Shown here: positions 4,735-46,412 of the stretch, piece by piece
How the letters are laid out: each line of letters begins with the position of its first letter
Position numbering within the stretch: the stretch's first letter is position 1
Sequence record: SRR31156797_7389
Length of the DNA stretch: 50,381 nucleotides
Reading direction: 5' to 3' (one strand)
Position numbers and translations under genes: made by a program
The notes under the pieces: model-generated
What the model was told of the DNA's origin: nothing
The model's database searches: none
The model's input: only the letters and a program-made list of their open reading frames with translations

Positions 4735-5836
4735 ATGCTGAACAATTTAGCTGCACGTTTAGGGCTGAAGCTCTTCATGCTCTTGACAGCCATTATCATC
4801 TTCTCCATTTTCCCCCTGGCCTATATGGCCGCCATGCAAACTATCGAAAGCTTTGCCGAGGAAATAGCTGATATAAATGGAATTGAAATACAAAGCCAAG
4901 CGTTTTGATTCTTGCTTCGGAAGCACACTATATGGTCGCTGGTGAGATGGAAAAGCCTGGGTGGATTTTTGAAGTCGTGGTTCGTGAAAAAAATTGCAAG
5001 GTGTTGATATTGCACCTTACGTGATCAAGTTCCTCCGTACAGTTGGTAGTGCATACTTTGGTGAAGTTTGGGCAAAGGTAACATCATGGCAGGGTAAACA
5101 AGTTCTTGTCGGCACCATTATAGATGTCAGTAACTTAACATATCATCAGCAGCAGTTGCAGGCCCGTGAATACCAGCTCCAGCAATCCCTAACGAAAAAA
5201 GAAGCGCTTTTGCGAGAAGTGTACCACCGAACAAAGAACAATATGCTGGTCATTATCTCCATGCTAACGCTTCAACTCATAGAAATACCAGACCAACGGG
5301 TAAAAACAATATTTCATGAAACTGAAAACCGAATCAGAGCCATGACCCTGGTCCATGAGAAGCTCTACCAATCAAAAAACCTTGCCGAGATAGAATTGGG
5401 CTCGTATCTCCAGGACAATGCCGAGAGCCTGATCACCCATATGACGCTCAAGAAAAGGATTTCCCTCCAAGTGGACGTTCAACCTGTTGCGATAAATATC
5501 GATAATGCCATTCCTCTTGGCCTGGTGGTAAATGAAATTATAACCAACTCGCTCCAACATGCCTTTCCAGAGAAACGAAAAGGCACCCTGCTCCTCAAGG
5601 TTACCTCGATTTCTGACAATACCATACATGTGACCATTGCCGACGACAGAATTGGTCTGGTGGATGAAAGTGATTTGCTGCATGGAAAGACATTTGGGAT
5701 GCAGATTATCTACAATCTGGTAACCATGCTGTTAAAAGGTACGATTGCGATGAATGAAGAGAAAGGCCCGTGCTACCAGATCACCTTTCCCAAAACAGAC
5801 TATATCAAACATATCCAACAAGAGTTGGTCTCATAA
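4735..5836 (+). pseudogene. Fragmented membrane sensor histidine kinase (TM, Cache-like, PAS, HisKA_2, HATPase)
   Basis: Three frames: a TM N-terminus at 4735-4908 ending in TGA; a Cache-end-like piece HYMVAGEMEKPGWIFEVVV from 4908; and PAS end plus EVYHRTKNNM and EIITNSLQHAF at 4994-5836. The G1 box reads DDRIG instead of DDGIG. Confidence 0.75.
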
Positions 5837-5886
5837 ACCCCTTTTTTCCACAATGCGTCTGAACCATATATTTTTTGTGCATAACG

Positions 5887-7665
5887 ATGAGTGACCTACC
5901 ACACCTGTTCAACTATCGTGATTTTCTAAAAAATCATTATGGAGATATACTGTACCGAGTTCCGCTTGATACCGGATCAAGCTGTCCCCATCGCGGAACT
6001 AGTGGTAGTGGCGGCTGTACCTTCTGCCCGGAAGACGGTGCAAGAGCTGTACAACTTGGCAATATTCAAGATATTCGAGAACAAATTCATGCAGGGATCA
6101 CTTTTGCCCAAAAACGCTATCAGGCACAATCTTTCATGGCTTATCTCCAGGCGTTTACCAGTACTTTTACCTCGGTAAAGCTGCTGAATGAGCTCATAAA
6201 AATTATTCGAGAAGAACATGATTTTAAAGCGATAACCTTTGGCACCAGGCCTGACTGCCTTTCTCCAGAGGTCATAACCTACCTTAAGGACCTGCATCAA
6301 CAGCTTGATGTCTGGGTTGAGCTCGGTATCCAGACGGTTCACAACAAGAGCCTTCAACGTATTAATCGCGGTCACGACTGGGCATCTGGTCATGAGGCAA
6401 TTTTAAGACTCCACCAGGCAGGGATCTTTGTCGGCGTTCACCTTATTATTGGCCTCCCGGGCGAATCACTGCCCCATTTCCAACAAACCATGGAGACCCT
6501 GGCACCACTTCCTATTGATGCCATCAAACTGCATAACCTGCATATCATCAAGAACACCACTCTTGCCGAGACCTTCCGCAAAAATCCCTTTCCAGTGTTC
6601 AAAGAATATGAATATGCTGAAATTCTGCTCAAACTGCTGCCGCTCATCCCGGCGGACCGTCCTCTGATCCGGCTAACTACAGACACACCGCAAGAAGTAT
6701 TGATTGCCCCCCAATGGTCAATGTCTAAGGGGCAGTTCCGTCATTATCTGCTGCAACAACTGCACAAACGCCAAATACACCAGGGAATGGCCCTCCAATA
6801 TCCAACCCAGAAAAATACAACCAATCAACCAATGGAAACAAAACCCGTAGCTTTTCTTACCGAAGATGGGAGCATCACTTTCTGGAATACAGAACTCAAG
6901 GAATATTATCACACCCTTGCCGGAGCTCGGTCAGAAGCTGGAGAGAAATACTGCTTTCCGGGCCAACTGGAAAAACGCCTTGGCAACGGACCAGTTCGAA
7001 TTTTGGATATATGCTTTGGCCTTGGCTATAACAGCCTTACAGCCTGTGAGCAGGCAATTCGAAGTGGTGGGAATGTAGAAATAACTGCCTTGGAAATAGA
7101 TAGACGGGTTGTGGAGACTGCAGCCGAAAAACTCTGTGAGACCGATACCGCCTTTCACTGGAACAACTGTCTGCAGACACTCTGCAAGAAAGGAATATGG
7201 AGTGAAGCAGGGTGCTCGATCCGTCTTTTATGGGGAGATGCCCGCCACACCCTCACCCAGGTGGAAGCCCCCTTTGACCTGATATGGCTCGATGCCTTTT
7301 CCACCCAAAGAAACAGTGAACTGTGGACAGTCGATTTTTTTGAACATTTGCGTCCTTTACTCCACCCTTCTGGCGCCCTGCTCACTTACTGTGCCGCTAT
7401 TCCAGTAAGAGCAGGATTACTGGCAGCAGGGTTTATAGTGGGGGAAACCGATGCCTTTGGCCGCCCAAGAGGCGGGACCATTGCCGGATGCAGCCAGGAT
7501 ATAATCAGCCAACCGCTGCCGGAACGCGATCTCTTCTTAATGGAAACCCTGCGTGGTATTCCTTACCGAGACCCCCAGCAAACTCGGACCAACAAGGAGA
7601 TACTGCGCCACCGTGAACTCGAAATTGTGCAGCGCAAAAAAGATATCAATCAAGAGCAGCCTTGA
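5887..7665 (+). CDS. TIGR01212 (YhcC/YtqA-type) radical SAM protein fused to an MnmC/MnmD-type tRNA methyltransferase domain
   Basis: N-terminal part: SCPHRGTSGSGGCTFC, YLQAFTST, GTRPDCL, ELGIQTVH, INRGH, IKLHNLHII. C-terminal part: TEDGSITF..EYYHT..GA..E, ILDICFGLGYN, WGDAR, WLDAFS..RNSELWT. One uninterrupted ORF. Confidence 0.85.
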   Translation: MSDLPHLFNYRDFLKNHYGDILYRVPLDTGSSCPHRGTSGSGGCTFCPEDGARAVQLGNIQDIREQIHAGITFAQKRYQAQSFMAYLQAFTSTFTSVKLLNELIKIIREEHDFKAITFGTRPDCLSPEVITYLKDLHQQLDVWVELGIQTVHNKSLQRINRGHDWASGHEAILRLHQAGIFVGVHLIIGLPGESLPHFQQTMETLAPLPIDAIKLHNLHIIKNTTLAETFRKNPFPVFKEYEYAEILLKLLPLIPADRPLIRLTTDTPQEVLIAPQWSMSKGQFRHYLLQQLHKRQIHQGMALQYPTQKNTTNQPMETKPVAFLTEDGSITFWNTELKEYYHTLAGARSEAGEKYCFPGQLEKRLGNGPVRILDICFGLGYNSLTACEQAIRSGGNVEITALEIDRRVVETAAEKLCETDTAFHWNNCLQTLCKKGIWSEAGCSIRLLWGDARHTLTQVEAPFDLIWLDAFSTQRNSELWTVDFFEHLRPLLHPSGALLTYCAAIPVRAGLLAAGFIVGETDAFGRPRGGTIAGCSQDIISQPLPERDLFLMETLRGIPYRDPQQTRTNKEILRHRELEIVQRKKDINQEQP

Positions 7666-40571: not shown

Positions 40572-42089
40572 ATGCCTGATATCGTTTTAACCACTTTAAA
40601 TGCACGTTATATCCATGCCTCTATTGGACTGCGCTCCCTGCTTGCAAACCTGCAGGAACTGGAATCAGAGGCAGAGATTATCGAGTTTACCATTGCAGAC
40701 CGACTGCAGGACGTTGCTGAAAAGATTCTCGCCCTGCAGCCACGCATTCTCGGCATCGGAGTGTATATATGGAATGCTCTCCAAGTTGAACAGCTCACTC
40801 AAATTATAAAAATACTCTCTCCAGCGACAATCGTTGTGCTTGGCGGCCCTGAGGCAAGTCACGTTCCTCACAGAGTCAACCTGGATGCTGCAGACCATAT
40901 TGTCCGGGGAGAGGGCGAAACAAGTTTTTATCGCCTCTGCCGCACTCTGTTGGACGATCCTGGAACGGCTGAAAGAATCATTGCGCCAATTCTTCCGGAT
41001 ATCGATGCACTCCATCTGCCTTACGACTATTACAATGACCAGGACATACAACATCGAACCATGTATGTTGAGGCATCCCGAGGATGTCCGTACACCTGCG
41101 AGTTCTGTCTCTCCTCCATTGACAAGCAGGTACGCTACTTTGAAATAGGCGGCTTTATCAACTCTCTGGAAAGCTTGTGGCAACGAGGAGCCAGGAATAT
41201 CAAATTCATTGATAGAACCTTTAACCTTAATTCCGAGCGCGTTATCCAGATACTGGACTTCTTTCTCGCTAAAAGCCCACCTTACTTGGTCCATTTTGAA
41301 GTCGTTCCCGATTACTTTCCCGCCCCAATAAAACAACGATTGTCTCAGTTTCCATCAGGTACACTACAGCTTGAAGTAGGTGTCCAGACCTTAAACGGGC
41401 AGGTAGCACAAGCGATCCACCGTAAATTGGATATGGAAAAATTAAAGGAAAACCTGCACTTTCTTGAGCACCAAACCCATGCCCACCTCCACCTCGATCT
41501 TATTGTCGGTCTTCCGGGGGAATCTCTGGAGAGTTTTGCCTGCAATCTCAATACGCTCACCACTCTGACCACAGGAGAAATACAGCTAGGAGTACTCAAA
41601 AAACTCTCGGGAACCACCATCAATCGACATGATCGGGCGCACAACATGGTGTACTCGCCTTTGCCGCCCTATGAAATACTAGCCAACGACCTGATCGACT
41701 TTGCAACCATGCAGCAGTTTAAACGGTTTGCCCGCTTCTGGGACCTTCTCTACAATAGCGGCAACTTCAGTGGCAGCGTTACTCTCCTCTGGCAAAACAC
41801 CGATACCTATAGCGGCTTTGCTAACTTTTCCTCCTGGCTCTATCAAAACACTCTCTCAACCTGGCAAATTTCGCTTCGCAGAATGGCTGAACTGCTCTTT
41901 CATTACCTCGTGGATGAAAAGCAGCAGCCGCCTGCAACGGTTGCTGACAGTATTGCAGCGGATATCCAAAAAATACAGGGACGCAGGCTGCCCCCCGTCA
42001 TCAGGGAACACACCACCGGTCCATCATTAAAAACCAAGCAAAAAAAAGCAGCAAGTCCTGGAAAAAGGCAACAAAAGCACTTGTTATAA
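40572..42089 (+). CDS. B12-binding-domain radical SAM protein (DUF4080-type C-terminus)
   Basis: TLNARYIH.S.GLR.L, GVYIWN, LGGPEAS, GEGE, EASRGCPYTCEFCLSS, FIDRTFN, HLDLIVGLPGE, PPYEIL, YNSG.F. Confidence 0.88.
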   Translation: MPDIVLTTLNARYIHASIGLRSLLANLQELESEAEIIEFTIADRLQDVAEKILALQPRILGIGVYIWNALQVEQLTQIIKILSPATIVVLGGPEASHVPHRVNLDAADHIVRGEGETSFYRLCRTLLDDPGTAERIIAPILPDIDALHLPYDYYNDQDIQHRTMYVEASRGCPYTCEFCLSSIDKQVRYFEIGGFINSLESLWQRGARNIKFIDRTFNLNSERVIQILDFFLAKSPPYLVHFEVVPDYFPAPIKQRLSQFPSGTLQLEVGVQTLNGQVAQAIHRKLDMEKLKENLHFLEHQTHAHLHLDLIVGLPGESLESFACNLNTLTTLTTGEIQLGVLKKLSGTTINRHDRAHNMVYSPLPPYEILANDLIDFATMQQFKRFARFWDLLYNSGNFSGSVTLLWQNTDTYSGFANFSSWLYQNTLSTWQISLRRMAELLFHYLVDEKQQPPATVADSIAADIQKIQGRRLPPVIREHTTGPSLKTKQKKAASPGKRQQKHLL

Positions 42090-42365: not shown

Positions 42366-45300
42366 ATGCTCCACCATAAGCAATCATTATCCTGGGTAGT
42401 ATCTGTTCTCGCCTGTCTATTCTGTGCATCGATTACTGTTGCAGCAGATATCCCGCAACAGCTTGAGCCATGGGTACCATGGGTATTGCATGATCAGGAC
42501 AACAGGCTTTGTACATCCTCATTTGATGGCGAAAAGAAATTCTGTATATGGCCGCATCCGCTGCAGTTGGATGTACAAGACAGTGGTGGATATTTTTCAC
42601 AGACCTGGGAAATGAAAACTCCTGGATGGATTGTCCTTCCCGGCCAAACAAAACTTTGGCCACAACAAGTGGTCATCAACAATAAGTCCGCACTGGTAGT
42701 CAACAAAAAAGGCGTACCAGCACTTCATGTACCTCAATCAGGTGCGTATACCATCAAGGGGAGTTTCACCTGGGCAAGCCTGCCTGAATCAATCAAGGTT
42801 CCTCCCGGTACCGCTTTTGTCGATTTCAAGCTCAACGGCAAAAAGCGGCTTGCTGATATAAACAACAACACTCTCTGGCTTTCCGGCAAGTCCTCAGCAC
42901 AAAAGACAAAAAACGAAGATACCGTTCATACTCAGGTTTACCGGCACATCAACGACACTATTCCCATGGTTATCACCAGTCAAATCGAGGTTCAGATTTC
43001 GGGAAATCCCCGTGAACTACTGATCGACTGGCAACTTCCTGCAAACCAGATACCTATCAGCCTGCAATGCTCCCTACCGGTAAAGATAGGTACGGACAAC
43101 CGGATTCATATGCAGGCCCGGCCCGGTAATTATACAATCGTGTATCAATCGCGCCTTAAAGGCCAGGTAGACACCCTGTTTTTTTCTCCATCCCCAATAG
43201 GTCCGGAAAGAGAATATTGGAGTTTTGAAGCACAAAGTCAGCTCCGCATGGTGAAAATTAACAGCGAAGCTGTGGTTGTTGATCCGAGCCAGACACCTCT
43301 TCCCAAAGTCTGGCATAAATTTCCATCCTATCTGGTAAAAAAAGGCCAGTCACTGAACTTTGAAACACTGAAACGAGGAGACCCAGAGCCTGCTCCCAAT
43401 CGTCTCAACCTCCATCGCAGTCTATGGCTAGACAGCGATGGCCAGGGGATGACCATCAAAGACACCCTCTCCGGGACGGTTACTCAGCAACCACGACTTG
43501 CAATGCAGCTCCCAGCCAAGCTCGGCAGAATGGTAATCAACGGCAGGGATCAACTCATCACCCGGGTTACAGAAGACGGGCCGGAAGGGGTTGAGGTGAG
43601 GCAGGGTAAAATCAAAGGCCTTGCCATAAGCAGAATAGAAAAAACCAATACGTTCCCAGCCGGAGGATGGGGCCAAAGTATCCACACACTCTCTGCGGAT
43701 CTTGTCCTCCCTCCTGGTTGGAAATTATTGTATGCATCTGGTGTCGATTCTGCAAAAACATGGATATCGAACTGGACTCTACTTGATTGCTTTATCGTAC
43801 TCATCATCGTCATTACTTCATTTAAACTGCTGGGGCCTGTGAAAGGCATAATTGCTCTCATCGCGTTAGTACTCTCCTATCACGACCGAGACGCACCAAT
43901 ATTTATCTGGCTGGCCCTGCTTGCTTGTATTGCCATGGTTAGGGCAATGCCGGATTCCAAATTGACCAGACCAGTTACCCAACTCAAGCTTGCGATCCTC
44001 GTTGGCTTGGTCATTATGATACTCCCTTACAGTGTTGAGCAACTGCAAGCAGGATTTTTTCCCCAGCTGGAAAAGGTATCTCATTTCTCTTCTCCTCCCA
44101 TGGAAAACCTGTCATTTGATGCAGTCAAGGATAGCGAACAAGATTCTCTTCCTCAAGCTGCTCGAAGATATGCGACTAAAGCAAAGTCCGAGCTAGCTCT
44201 TTCTTCAGCTAAACGCCGTTACCTATCCAGTCAGCAACATGAACAGCAATATGATGTACAATCCAAGGTACAGGCAGGGCCAGGGATGCCAACTAAAAAA
44301 TGGAGGAACATTCGGCTCTCCTGGAACGGTCCGGTGGAAAAAGAACTGGAATTACGCCTCCTGCTCGTCTCCCCTTTTATCAACCTCCTGCTCATTGTAG
44401 TAAAAGTTGCAGCCGTTTTTCTGCTCGCTTTTTTTATGGTGGACTTTAAAAATGATGCGACTATACCGTGGAAAAAGGCTCTCCCATCGGTTAGCCCTAC
44501 AGCCATCGCCTTGTTTTTTGCTCTTACCCCAATCTCGGCGCAAACCGGATACTGTACAGAATATCCCAGCCAGGAACTCCTCGATACTCTCCGCACAAGA
44601 ATACTGCAGCCAGCTCCCTGTTTTCCAAATTGCGCTGATTTCAACGCCATGGACGTTAATCTTCATGGCAATGAAATTAAAATTAAATTACAGGCCAATT
44701 GCAGTGCGGAGTCAGCTGTAATGCTTCCACAGGGTAAAGGCATATTCTGGCGATCCATCAAGGTTGATCAGCAATCCGCTCCAGCTTTTGCCGATAAAAA
44801 AAACGTATGGCTGCCTCTCCCAGCCGGTCAGCAAGAAATATTCCTTTCCGGAACCATAAACAGATCAGATGTACAATTATTTTTCCCCCTTCCCCCACAT
44901 GTTGTCACCTTCGACGGACAAGGAGAATGGTCGGTTGCAGGACTCGATGAAAACCATGTGCCCGAGGACCGGCTCCAGTTTACCAAACAAGAGACACTGG
45001 CACAGCAAACCGACTTTGGTACGTCCACCCTGCCCCCACTCATGCAGGTCGAGAGAATTCTCCACCTTGGACTTCAGTGGCGAGTTGAAACCATTGTTAC
45101 CAGGATCTCACCAGAAGGGACTGCGGTCTTTCTCTCTATACCGCTGCTTACAGGTGAATCCGTGACAGACCCAGCCTATACGGTGGAAGATCATAGAATT
45201 GCTGTCCACTTTGCCCCTGATGAGCGTGAAAAACGATGGGATTCCGTGTTTAAAAAACAAACACAGATCACCCTGCTGGCTCCACAGTCAACAAAATGGA

Positions 45301-46412
45301 ACGAAATTTGGCGAATGAATGCAAGCCCGATCTGGCATGTGGAAGCAAAAGGTATCCCTCCGATTCATCACCACTCAAATAAAGGGGCATGGCAACCGGT
45401 GTGGCACCCCTGGGGAAATGAGCACCTCACCTTGAACATCTCCAGGCCGGAAGGTGTTCCTGGCCCCACCAAGACCATAGAATCAAGTACCCTGACAATC
45501 AGTCCGGGAATCAGGTCCACCAGCATGCACCTTGACTTCACCATTCGATCCACCCGTGGTGATCAGCAACACGTCATTTTACCTGATGCATCCATTGTGC
45601 AGTCAGTCAAGATAGATGGGCGAAAACAACCAGTAAAAAAGGACAATATCGTCGGTATTCCTCTCCGCCCAGGTACCCAGCAAATCGCTCTTGACTGGAG
45701 AACAGCAGGCGGCGTTACCACCTTTTACCAGGTACCGGAAATTGATCTTGGCATCGTCAGCGTTAATTCAAATATCGAGATACAGATCGGCAAGCGATGG
45801 GTATGGTTCGTCAAGGGACCTAAAATGGGACCTGCTATTCTCTTTTACAGCGAATTGCTGATTATCTTGCTGGTGTCCGTACTTTTGGGAAGATCAAAGA
45901 TGACGCCGCTTAAGAGTTATCATTGGGCGATACTGGGGGTTGGTTTATGCCAGAGCGGCCTGGTACCTTGTTTGATTATTGTCGGCTGGTTTATAGCCCT
46001 TAAAATGAGGCTGGAAAAAGGAAATGAGTTAAATAATGCCTGGTTCAATCTGGTCCAGATCGCGCTGATCTTGCTCACCCTTTTCACCGTAGGTGCACTG
46101 GTTTTTGCGGTCCGTAACGGACTGCTCGGGCATCCCGATATGTTGATCGCTGGTAATAATTCAGACAGTTTCCTGCTCATATGGTATCAGGATCGAGTAA
46201 CCGAGGGCATTCTTCCTCAGCCCACGGTTATTTCAATACCCATGATGGCCTATCGAGTAACCATGCTCGCATGGGCGCTGTGGCTTGCTTTTAACCTTCT
46301 ACAATGGATAAAATGGGGATGGACCTGTTTTACCAATGATCGACCTTGGGCACCAATACGTTTTACCCGCAGAAAAAAAGAGAGCAAATCAGAGAGTGCC
46401 ACTGACTCCTAA
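42366..46412 (+). CDS. Large (1348 aa) membrane protein with two repeated extracytoplasmic-beta plus TM-bundle halves; function unknown
   Basis: Long ORF, RBS GGAGG, signal peptide; two hydrophobic helix clusters, each preceded by a long beta-rich region. Confidence 0.85.
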   Translation: MLHHKQSLSWVVSVLACLFCASITVAADIPQQLEPWVPWVLHDQDNRLCTSSFDGEKKFCIWPHPLQLDVQDSGGYFSQTWEMKTPGWIVLPGQTKLWPQQVVINNKSALVVNKKGVPALHVPQSGAYTIKGSFTWASLPESIKVPPGTAFVDFKLNGKKRLADINNNTLWLSGKSSAQKTKNEDTVHTQVYRHINDTIPMVITSQIEVQISGNPRELLIDWQLPANQIPISLQCSLPVKIGTDNRIHMQARPGNYTIVYQSRLKGQVDTLFFSPSPIGPEREYWSFEAQSQLRMVKINSEAVVVDPSQTPLPKVWHKFPSYLVKKGQSLNFETLKRGDPEPAPNRLNLHRSLWLDSDGQGMTIKDTLSGTVTQQPRLAMQLPAKLGRMVINGRDQLITRVTEDGPEGVEVRQGKIKGLAISRIEKTNTFPAGGWGQSIHTLSADLVLPPGWKLLYASGVDSAKTWISNWTLLDCFIVLIIVITSFKLLGPVKGIIALIALVLSYHDRDAPIFIWLALLACIAMVRAMPDSKLTRPVTQLKLAILVGLVIMILPYSVEQLQAGFFPQLEKVSHFSSPPMENLSFDAVKDSEQDSLPQAARRYATKAKSELALSSAKRRYLSSQQHEQQYDVQSKVQAGPGMPTKKWRNIRLSWNGPVEKELELRLLLVSPFINLLLIVVKVAAVFLLAFFMVDFKNDATIPWKKALPSVSPTAIALFFALTPISAQTGYCTEYPSQELLDTLRTRILQPAPCFPNCADFNAMDVNLHGNEIKIKLQANCSAESAVMLPQGKGIFWRSIKVDQQSAPAFADKKNVWLPLPAGQQEIFLSGTINRSDVQLFFPLPPHVVTFDGQGEWSVAGLDENHVPEDRLQFTKQETLAQQTDFGTSTLPPLMQVERILHLGLQWRVETIVTRISPEGTAVFLSIPLLTGESVTDPAYTVEDHRIAVHFAPDEREKRWDSVFKKQTQITLLAPQSTKWNEIWRMNASPIWHVEAKGIPPIHHHSNKGAWQPVWHPWGNEHLTLNISRPEGVPGPTKTIESSTLTISPGIRSTSMHLDFTIRSTRGDQQHVILPDASIVQSVKIDGRKQPVKKDNIVGIPLRPGTQQIALDWRTAGGVTTFYQVPEIDLGIVSVNSNIEIQIGKRWVWFVKGPKMGPAILFYSELLIILLVSVLLGRSKMTPLKSYHWAILGVGLCQSGLVPCLIIVGWFIALKMRLEKGNELNNAWFNLVQIALILLTLFTVGALVFAVRNGLLGHPDMLIAGNNSDSFLLIWYQDRVTEGILPQPTVISIPMMAYRVTMLAWALWLAFNLLQWIKWGWTCFTNDRPWAPIRFTRRKKESKSESATDS

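Follow-up and report, generated by a model that had tools for sequence, protein, structure and literature searches.

A predicted MnmL-MnmC2 fusion for O2-independent wobble-uridine maturation in a Desulfogranum-like organism

Introduction

The wobble modification 5-methylaminomethyl-2-thiouridine (mnm5s2U) of tRNA adjusts how Lys, Glu and Gln codons are read. Until work of 2023-2026 it was not clear by what route anaerobes, which cannot rely on the O2-dependent oxidase MnmC1, complete this modification. A predicted natural example of the answer is a gene in a stretch of 50,381 nucleotides from sequence record SRR31156797_7389, referred to below as the window. The gene (5887..7665, plus strand) joins a radical S-adenosylmethionine (SAM) domain of the MnmL/YtqA/YhcC family to an MnmC2-type methyltransferase domain. 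In the interpretation favoured here, to which we assign a probability of about 0.8, the product is a bifunctional, O2-independent enzyme predicted to catalyse the last two steps from 5-carboxymethylaminomethyl-(2-thio)uridine, cmnm5(s2)U34, to mnm5(s2)U34 in tRNA, both activities of the fused protein being presumed from its relatives. The individual reactions are those established for homologs elsewhere, namely E. coli YhcC for the MnmL reaction and Aquifex DUF752 and E. coli MnmC for the MnmC2 reaction, and would apply to the fused protein by analogy.

Neither the fusion type nor its interpretation is new, as both have already been published. An earlier reading of the locus made from the DNA letters only (the sequence-only reading) could not confirm whether such a fusion had been reported; such a report exists and describes three YtqA/MnmC2 fusions among the COG genomes, with another 70 from InterPro (10.1101/2023.12.21.572861). 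In that work the fusions, together with the clustering of ytqA and mnmM, nominated YtqA, which was then validated by genetics and renamed MnmL. The Rosetta-stone argument for the function of the YhcC family, which the sequence-only reading also drew, is thus correct and had already been used there. The same source suggests that the MnmL/MnmC2 pair can replace MnmC1/MnmC2, with the remark that “these predictions await experimental validation”, and proposes a chemistry for MnmL in which a 5'-deoxyadenosyl radical takes a hydrogen from cmnm5s2U, leading through oxidative decarboxylation to an imine that is hydrolysed to 5-aminomethyl-2-thiouridine (nm5s2U). For E. coli, YhcC (= MnmL) is reported to be required in vivo for cmnm5s2U demodification under anaerobic conditions, and the reconstituted enzyme with SAM converts cmnm5s2U-tRNA to nm5s2U in vitro (10.64898/2026.05.18.725915). 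According to the same report, MnmC1 needs O2 and YhcC is its anaerobic replacement, and organisms possessing MnmL only tend toward anaerobes.

Architecture of the fusion protein

Positions 5875..7665 of the plus strand constitute one uninterrupted open reading frame (ORF), in which the ATG at 5887 opens a protein of 592 residues followed by a stop codon. The four closest database homologs are likewise 592 residues long and align with 84-86% identity at 100% coverage. The proposal that a single ORF joins a full TIGR01212-type radical SAM domain to an MnmC-type methyltransferase is borne out by the frame itself and by the Pfam and NCBIfam profiles. The radical SAM domain comprises residues 9-304 (5911..6798) and the methyltransferase domain residues 319-574 (6841..7608), both on the plus strand. 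They are separated by a polar linker of variable length (residues 305-318; 6799..6840), which corresponds to the linker placed near 6800-6840 by the sequence-only reading and coincides with gap-rich, unconserved columns when 38 fusion proteins, 47-84% identical to the query, are aligned. In an AlphaFold2 model built from the fusion-family alignment (mean predicted local distance difference test, pLDDT, 89.1; predicted TM-score, pTM, 0.85), linker residues 306-313 form the sole internal stretch with a pLDDT below 50. All sequence motifs quoted for the two domains in the sequence-only reading were found in the translation, with two corrections of spacing: six residues, not seven, lie between CPHR and GCTFC, and three residues, not two, between LDAFS and the following Asn of the LDAFS..N.ELW motif.

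The radical SAM domain

Pfam assigns Radical_SAM to residues 42-204 and Radical_SAM_C (PF16199) to residues 210-292 (70.7 bits). The NCBIfam profile TIGR01212, “tRNA modification radical SAM protein MnmL/YtqA”, is matched end to end, residues 9-304 covering profile positions 4-301 of 302, with a score of 252.7 bits against a cut-off of 180. The domain displays 33% identity to E. coli YhcC over 295 residues (E 4e-52), and its best relatives of solved structure are the radical SAM domains of Elp3 (E 1.6e-13), consistent with an Elp3-like fold. The predicted [4Fe-4S] motif, C33-x10-C44-x2-C47 (CPHRGTSGSGGCTFC; 5983..6027, plus strand), has its three cysteines invariant in 38/38 fusion homologs, and the same cysteines are likewise invariant in a three-way alignment of the fusion, E. 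coli YhcC and a standalone Desulfogranum paralog. The segments R121-P122-D123 and G162-H163 are also invariant across the 38 fusion proteins. Altogether, about 60 positions of the N-terminal domain besides the cluster cysteines do not vary, a degree of constraint that argues for an active radical SAM domain.

The methyltransferase domain

Methyltransf_30 (PF05430) matches residues 440-533 with 86.8 bits against a gathering score of 22 (E 1.4e-24). The best match in the PDB is the MnmC2 (DUF752) protein of Aquifex aeolicus (3vyw_A; HMMER E 6.4e-24, 26-27% identity), which aligns with residues 317-574. Structural comparison of the model with the PDB by Foldseek gave the same protein as first match (3vyw_D; E 2.5e-20, TM-score to target 0.73), followed by an Elp3 radical SAM structure (8pty_C; E 4.4e-13) and then by the N-terminal part of E. 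coli MnmC (2qy6_A; TM-score to target 0.71). No DAO/FAD domain of the MnmC1 type was detected in the ORF by the Pfam scan, and the profiles NF002480 and NF002481 score only 55.7 bits (cut-off 540) and 48.4 bits (cut-off 600), respectively, the methyltransferase part alone being matched.

The hallmark motifs of the domain are all in place. DGS..EYYH..GA..E extends over residues 327-350. Motif I, LDICFGLGYN (residues 373-382; 7003..7032, plus strand), is predicted to bind S-adenosylmethionine (AdoMet), and motif IV, DAF...N.ELW (D469 to W480; 7291..7326, plus strand), contained in the segment LDAFSTQRNSELW (residues 468-480), carries the predicted catalytic Asp; both assignments draw on the Aquifex alignment and on invariance. 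Residues D374, F377, G378, G380, Y381, N382, E403, D451, D469, F471, N476 and W480 are invariant in the 38 fusions. Every MnmC2 residue named in PMC3527978 aligns with an identical residue of the fusion. With the roles given in that source, Aquifex L107-N110, of the motif I (GX)GXGXN, correspond to L379-N382; E133, which contacts the ribose hydroxyls of AdoMet, to E403; D174, at adenine N6, to D451; D193 and F195, of the DAF motif, to D469 and F471; N200, at adenine N7, to N476; and E202, at adenine N6, to E478. The last of these is present in at least 90% of the 38 aligned fusions, and N382, E403, D451, D469, F471 and N476 are invariant. Aquifex D193 has been proposed as the catalytic base, equivalent to the essential D178 of E. 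coli, and F195 is equivalent to E. coli F180 (PMC3527978). A C-terminal tail with the pattern RG.PYRDP...N.EILR.R (residues 556-576; 7552..7614, plus strand) lies outside the Pfam domain, aligns partly with the C-terminus of Aquifex MnmC2, and contains eight positions (G557, Y560, D562, P563, I572, L573, R574 and R576) that are invariant in 38/38 fusion homologs. Judged by their residues, both active sites of the protein are intact.

Proposed reaction sequence

In the first step of the predicted sequence, a [4Fe-4S] cluster bound to C33, C44 and C47 of the MnmL-type domain would cleave SAM reductively, and the resulting 5'-deoxyadenosyl radical would attack the cmnm5 side chain installed by MnmEG, abstracting a hydrogen, so that the carboxymethyl group is removed and nm5(s2)U is formed. 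In the second step, the MnmC2-type domain would use a second SAM to methylate the nitrogen of nm5(s2)U and give mnm5(s2)U, the base being D469 of the DAF motif. In this scheme the radical SAM domain would hold the place that the O2-dependent FAD (flavin adenine dinucleotide) oxidase MnmC1 occupies in E. coli MnmC. Such replacement of the flavin oxidase by an Fe-S radical domain, already suggested by the sequence-only reading and in print before it, is supported by the conserved fusion, by the apparently intact catalytic residues and by the pathway genes of the proxy genomes described below. An enzyme that dispenses with O2 would also fit the organism, since the closest named relative is Desulfogranum marinum (84% identity), of a genus of strictly anaerobic sulfate reducers.

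Conservation and spread of the fusion

The fusion could in principle reflect an assembly error, a frameshift or a gene-calling artefact that joins two genes. This explanation is refuted. The frame is uninterrupted in the window, and the fusion is a single ORF without internal stops in three related genomes: that of D. marinum DSM 2058 (G001; locus L002), a metagenome-assembled genome (MAG) of Desulfobulbus sp. (G002; locus L001) and a third genome, G052. The first two loci each align with the query at 84% identity over residues 1-592. A 90%-clustered protein collection, in which 8000 candidates were scored, yielded 2434 proteins with E <= 1e-3 and lengths of 325-1036 residues. Among the matches listed, 120/120 homologs (504-660 residues, 48-86% identity) display the same architecture of PF16199, PF04055 and PF05430; they come from independent sources, some on contigs of 4.1-5.6 Mb. 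Among the sources named for these matches are Desulfogranum mediterraneum, Desulforhopalus, a Desulfobulbus propionicus MAG, several Pontiella, a Planctomycetota MAG and a Gemmatimonadetes MAG. The concern that relatives might encode two unlinked genes is thus answered by single ORFs both in close relatives and across several phyla.

An exhaustive search of 1.84 billion representatives clustered at 50% identity returned 8181 with E <= 1e-3, of which 798 had E <= 1e-30. Among the 150 best representatives, 57 gave BLASTP matches to the N-terminal and the C-terminal half of the query alike. The radical SAM domain comes first in all 57, and both domains are nearly complete in 37 of them; a further 87 matched the N-terminal half alone and six the C-terminal half alone.

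In the order to which D. marinum belongs, 121 genomes were sampled; these may be incomplete, and negatives among them are to be read as “not found” rather than “absent”. The full-length fusion was found in 2/121 (G001 and G052), and no match to the C-terminal domain alone was found in any of them, a further point against an artefact. Strong PF05430 matches (88-92 bits) are confined to the same two genomes, the 13 others with a PF05430 match at E <= 0.001 scoring at most 34 bits. Within this order, therefore, the fusion is patchy and was never found split.

Pathway context in the nearest genomes

The pathway was examined in G001 and G002, the genomes nearest to the window, as proxies for the source genome. 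MnmG (875 bits in both), MnmE (399.6 and 394.8 bits, respectively) and MnmA (307.5 and 304.8 bits, respectively) all exceed their cut-offs. MnmC1 (TIGR03197) was above its cut-off in 0/2, the best score being 57.5 against a cut-off of 174.2, and MnmM (PF06962) was found in 0/2. The fusion provides the only strong PF05430/MnmC2 match in either genome. The expectation of mnmE and mnmG accompanied by no FAD-type mnmC thus holds in the two nearest genomes.

Two candidates in the D. marinum genome were considered and rejected. A second PF05430 match (26.3 bits, in a frame of 895 residues) belongs to a membrane-anchored, spermidine-synthase-like protein and was not accepted as MnmC2. The best TIGR03197 match (57.5 bits) is a generic DAO-family oxidase of 381 residues and was not accepted as MnmC1; it adjoins an FAD/NAD oxidoreductase of 469 residues. 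Sequence alone leaves room for a non-orthologous FAD oxidase in this genome.

Standalone paralogs, the domain tree and alternative functions

Several observations weigh against the bifunctional interpretation. The pathway context was read in proxy genomes and not in the source genome, and a literature search brought up no experiments on any protein in which MnmL and MnmC2 are fused. The methyltransferase half (residues 334-528, on profile positions 3-201 of 209) reaches 99.2 bits with the tRNA_MNMC2 profile NF033855, below its equivalog_domain cut-off of 136 bits. Conserved basic cleft residues of E. coli YhcC, K21 and R279, have been proposed to bind tRNA (10.64898/2026.05.18.725915); R279 aligns with K281 of the window protein (Lys in at least 90% of fusions), but K21 aligns with I21. 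The nearby R24 aligns with K24 of YhcC and is nearly invariant in fusions. Furthermore, the fusion-bearing relatives encode a second TIGR01212 protein, and in the domain tree the radical SAM domains of the fusions group together, separately from the half that holds the validated E. coli YhcC. The last two points each bear on an alternative role for the fused radical SAM domain.

The second TIGR01212 protein is a divergent standalone paralog of about 320 residues that accompanies the fusion in G001 (L009:1447-2412, minus strand; 215.3 bits), G002 (L008; 216.4 bits) and G052 (G052:C24:38975-39859; 176.8 bits, just under the cut-off of 180). Its co-occurrence with the fusion in all three genomes, and the standalone form being the commoner one in the order, would fit a division of labour in which the standalone protein is the working MnmL and the fused radical SAM half is redundant or specialised for a tRNA subset or for selenated or unthiolated substrates. 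TIGR01212 is above cut-off in 20/121 of the order genomes, and in 18 of these as a standalone gene only. We regard this division of labour as quite unlikely, however, given the invariance of the cluster cysteines and some 60 other N-domain positions in the 38 fusions. In addition, E. coli YhcC is about equally distant from the D. marinum paralog (32% identity) and from the fused domain (33%), these two being 34% identical to each other, and its surroundings show no link to tRNA modification: it lies downstream of cupin and FmdE-like zinc-ribbon genes and is convergent with a spermidine-synthase-like methyltransferase. A tblastn search with the paralog against a plasmid collection returned only distant TIGR01212 matches of 31-34% identity, on chromosome-sized records.

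The relationship of the radical SAM domains was analysed with FastTree using 132 rows. E. coli YhcC, the window protein and the G001 paralog were included together with 129 representatives; the other 21 of the 150 were left out for want of an N-domain match or because the match covered under 250 residues of that domain. A single group of 57 rows (SH-like support 99) takes in all 48 of the domains fused to MnmC2, in a tree made by a quick method with midpoint rooting, without B. subtilis YtqA and from a representative list biased toward the query. The same group contains four long proteins of unresolved architecture, three short proteins and two QueH fusions, while E. coli YhcC and the G001 paralog belong to the opposite half, of 69 rows. 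Together with the identity of about 33% to YhcC, this separation means that the transfer of function from YhcC to the fused domain crosses a deep split. Ten other long TIGR01212 proteins were scanned for additional domains. Three are fused to QueH, on either side (P0165, P0176 and P0210), and one each to a CCA-adding enzyme (P0258), Maf (P0253) and a rhomboid domain (P0240); in the remaining 4/10, Pfam recognises radical SAM domains only. Two of the QueH fusions nest within the MnmC2-fused clade, which suggests that the radical SAM module of this clade is not tied to MnmC2 alone. QueH is not mentioned in the main text of the report that described the MnmC2 fusions (10.1101/2023.12.21.572861).

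The separate clade, the two QueH-bearing members and the replacement of K21 are all compatible with a protein in which only the methyltransferase works in the mnm5 pathway, acting on nm5(s2)U supplied by the ammonium route of MnmEG that has been proposed for Aquifex, and in which the radical SAM domain performs some other reaction at or near position 34 or has another substrate. The caution that TIGR01212 and IPR005911 hold paralog subgroups that are not necessarily isofunctional (10.1101/2023.12.21.572861) points the same way. This alternative is nevertheless unlikely. The TIGR01212 equivalog score is well above its cut-off, and no other enzyme for the cmnm5-to-nm5 step (MnmC1) is above cut-off in the proxy genomes. 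The work on E. coli YhcC found no residues separating YhcC-type from YtqA-type proteins, showed that both types catalyse the same reaction, and states that in E. coli the ammonium route lacks direct support in vivo (10.64898/2026.05.18.725915). The simplest explanation of a fusion to the enzyme of the next step, kept across phyla with both active sites apparently intact, is that the two domains act in succession, as the bifunctional interpretation holds.

The 18/121 order genomes with a standalone TIGR01212 protein above cut-off have neither a strong MnmC2 match nor MnmM, the latter being found in 0/121. Without a recognisable nm5U methylase in these genomes, their standalone proteins might not feed mnm5s2U synthesis; such genomes may instead make another end product, have a methylase of an unrecognised kind or use the radical SAM protein for some other function. 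According to the report on the MnmC2 fusions, there is no known organism in which the pathway ends at nm5s2U (10.1101/2023.12.21.572861). A broader scenario, which is possible if rather doubtful, is that the MnmC2-fused domains constitute a distinct TIGR01212 subfamily apart from the validated YhcC type, also captured by QueH and maybe a general “wobble-34” module. The Desulfogranum lineage would then have added the fusion to an older, divergent standalone paralog, and the standalone-only genomes of the order would have another function for that protein, nm5s2U as end product or an undiscovered methylase.

Genomic neighbourhood

The genes around the fusion offer no operon evidence for its function, and no neighbour in the window is related to tRNA modification. 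They encode PPK2, a HisKA_2 kinase, a convergent UPF0014 protein accompanied by an ABC ATPase, DUF4198 and CbiM/CbiQ. The synteny downstream of the fusion is common to the window, L001 and L002, and the upstream kinase is not. This HisKA_2/HATPase_c histidine kinase (4994-5836, plus strand) lies directly upstream of the fusion and has no counterpart there in the two related loci, so that either it was inserted locally or the relatives have lost it. Scans for promoters and terminators around the gene gave background levels (three against a shuffled mean of 3.0, and two against 2.6, respectively), and no tRNA genes were found within the window. Elsewhere in the window, an ORF of 1348 residues (42366-46412, plus strand) matches no Pfam family at E <= 1e-5, and just upstream of it lies the gene of a radical SAM protein that has a B12-binding domain and, at its C-terminus, DUF4080 (40572-42089, plus strand).

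Significance

The gene opens no new question by itself. It is a clean natural example of a predicted radical SAM demodifying enzyme fused to the next enzyme of its pathway, and its practical value is that a fused MnmL-MnmC2 protein could be assayed biochemically for the first time with it, including the hand-over of the intermediate between the two active sites. It may also serve as an annotation anchor for fusion records that are inconsistently named: a Pontiella homolog (P0066) is called “bifunctional protein MnmC” by one source despite having no FAD oxidase domain, and most other fusion homologs are named just “TIGR01212 family radical SAM protein”.

Comparison with known systems

The window gene is a genuine member of the MnmL(YtqA)-MnmC2 fusion class already described. 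The published fusions have the same domains (PF04055, PF16199 and MnmC2) and the same predicted role in the conversion of cmnm5s2U to nm5s2U and mnm5s2U (10.1101/2023.12.21.572861). There is no difference in kind, and the window gene adds a further member from a Desulfogranum-like organism, a comparison made with the class as the text of that paper describes it.

Like E. coli YhcC and the YtqA proteins of B. subtilis and Streptococcus, the window protein belongs to the TIGR01212 family and carries the same three-Cys motif. YhcC and YtqA are standalone proteins that work beside a separate methylase, the MnmC2 part of MnmC in E. coli and MnmM in Bacillota, whereas here the methylase is fused. 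In this respect the window protein resembles E. coli MnmC (PDB codes 3awi and 3ps9), in which demodification and methylation are combined in one polypeptide, as is predicted here, and the methyltransferase domains of the two proteins are homologous (3awi, E 6.3e-8). In contrast, E. coli MnmC contains an FAD oxidase where the window protein has a radical SAM domain, and the domain order is reversed, with the methyltransferase C-terminal in the window protein and N-terminal in E. coli MnmC. The lack of an FAD domain and the reversed order place the window protein outside the MnmC family proper. Among proteins of solved structure, the methyltransferase is most similar to Aquifex aeolicus DUF752/MnmC2 (3vyw), in which the AdoMet-contacting residues and the catalytic Asp described in PMC3527978 are identical to those of the window protein. 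The Aquifex enzyme, however, is a standalone protein thought to use the product of the MnmEG ammonium route, while the methyltransferase of the window protein follows a radical SAM domain that is predicted to prepare its substrate by demodification.

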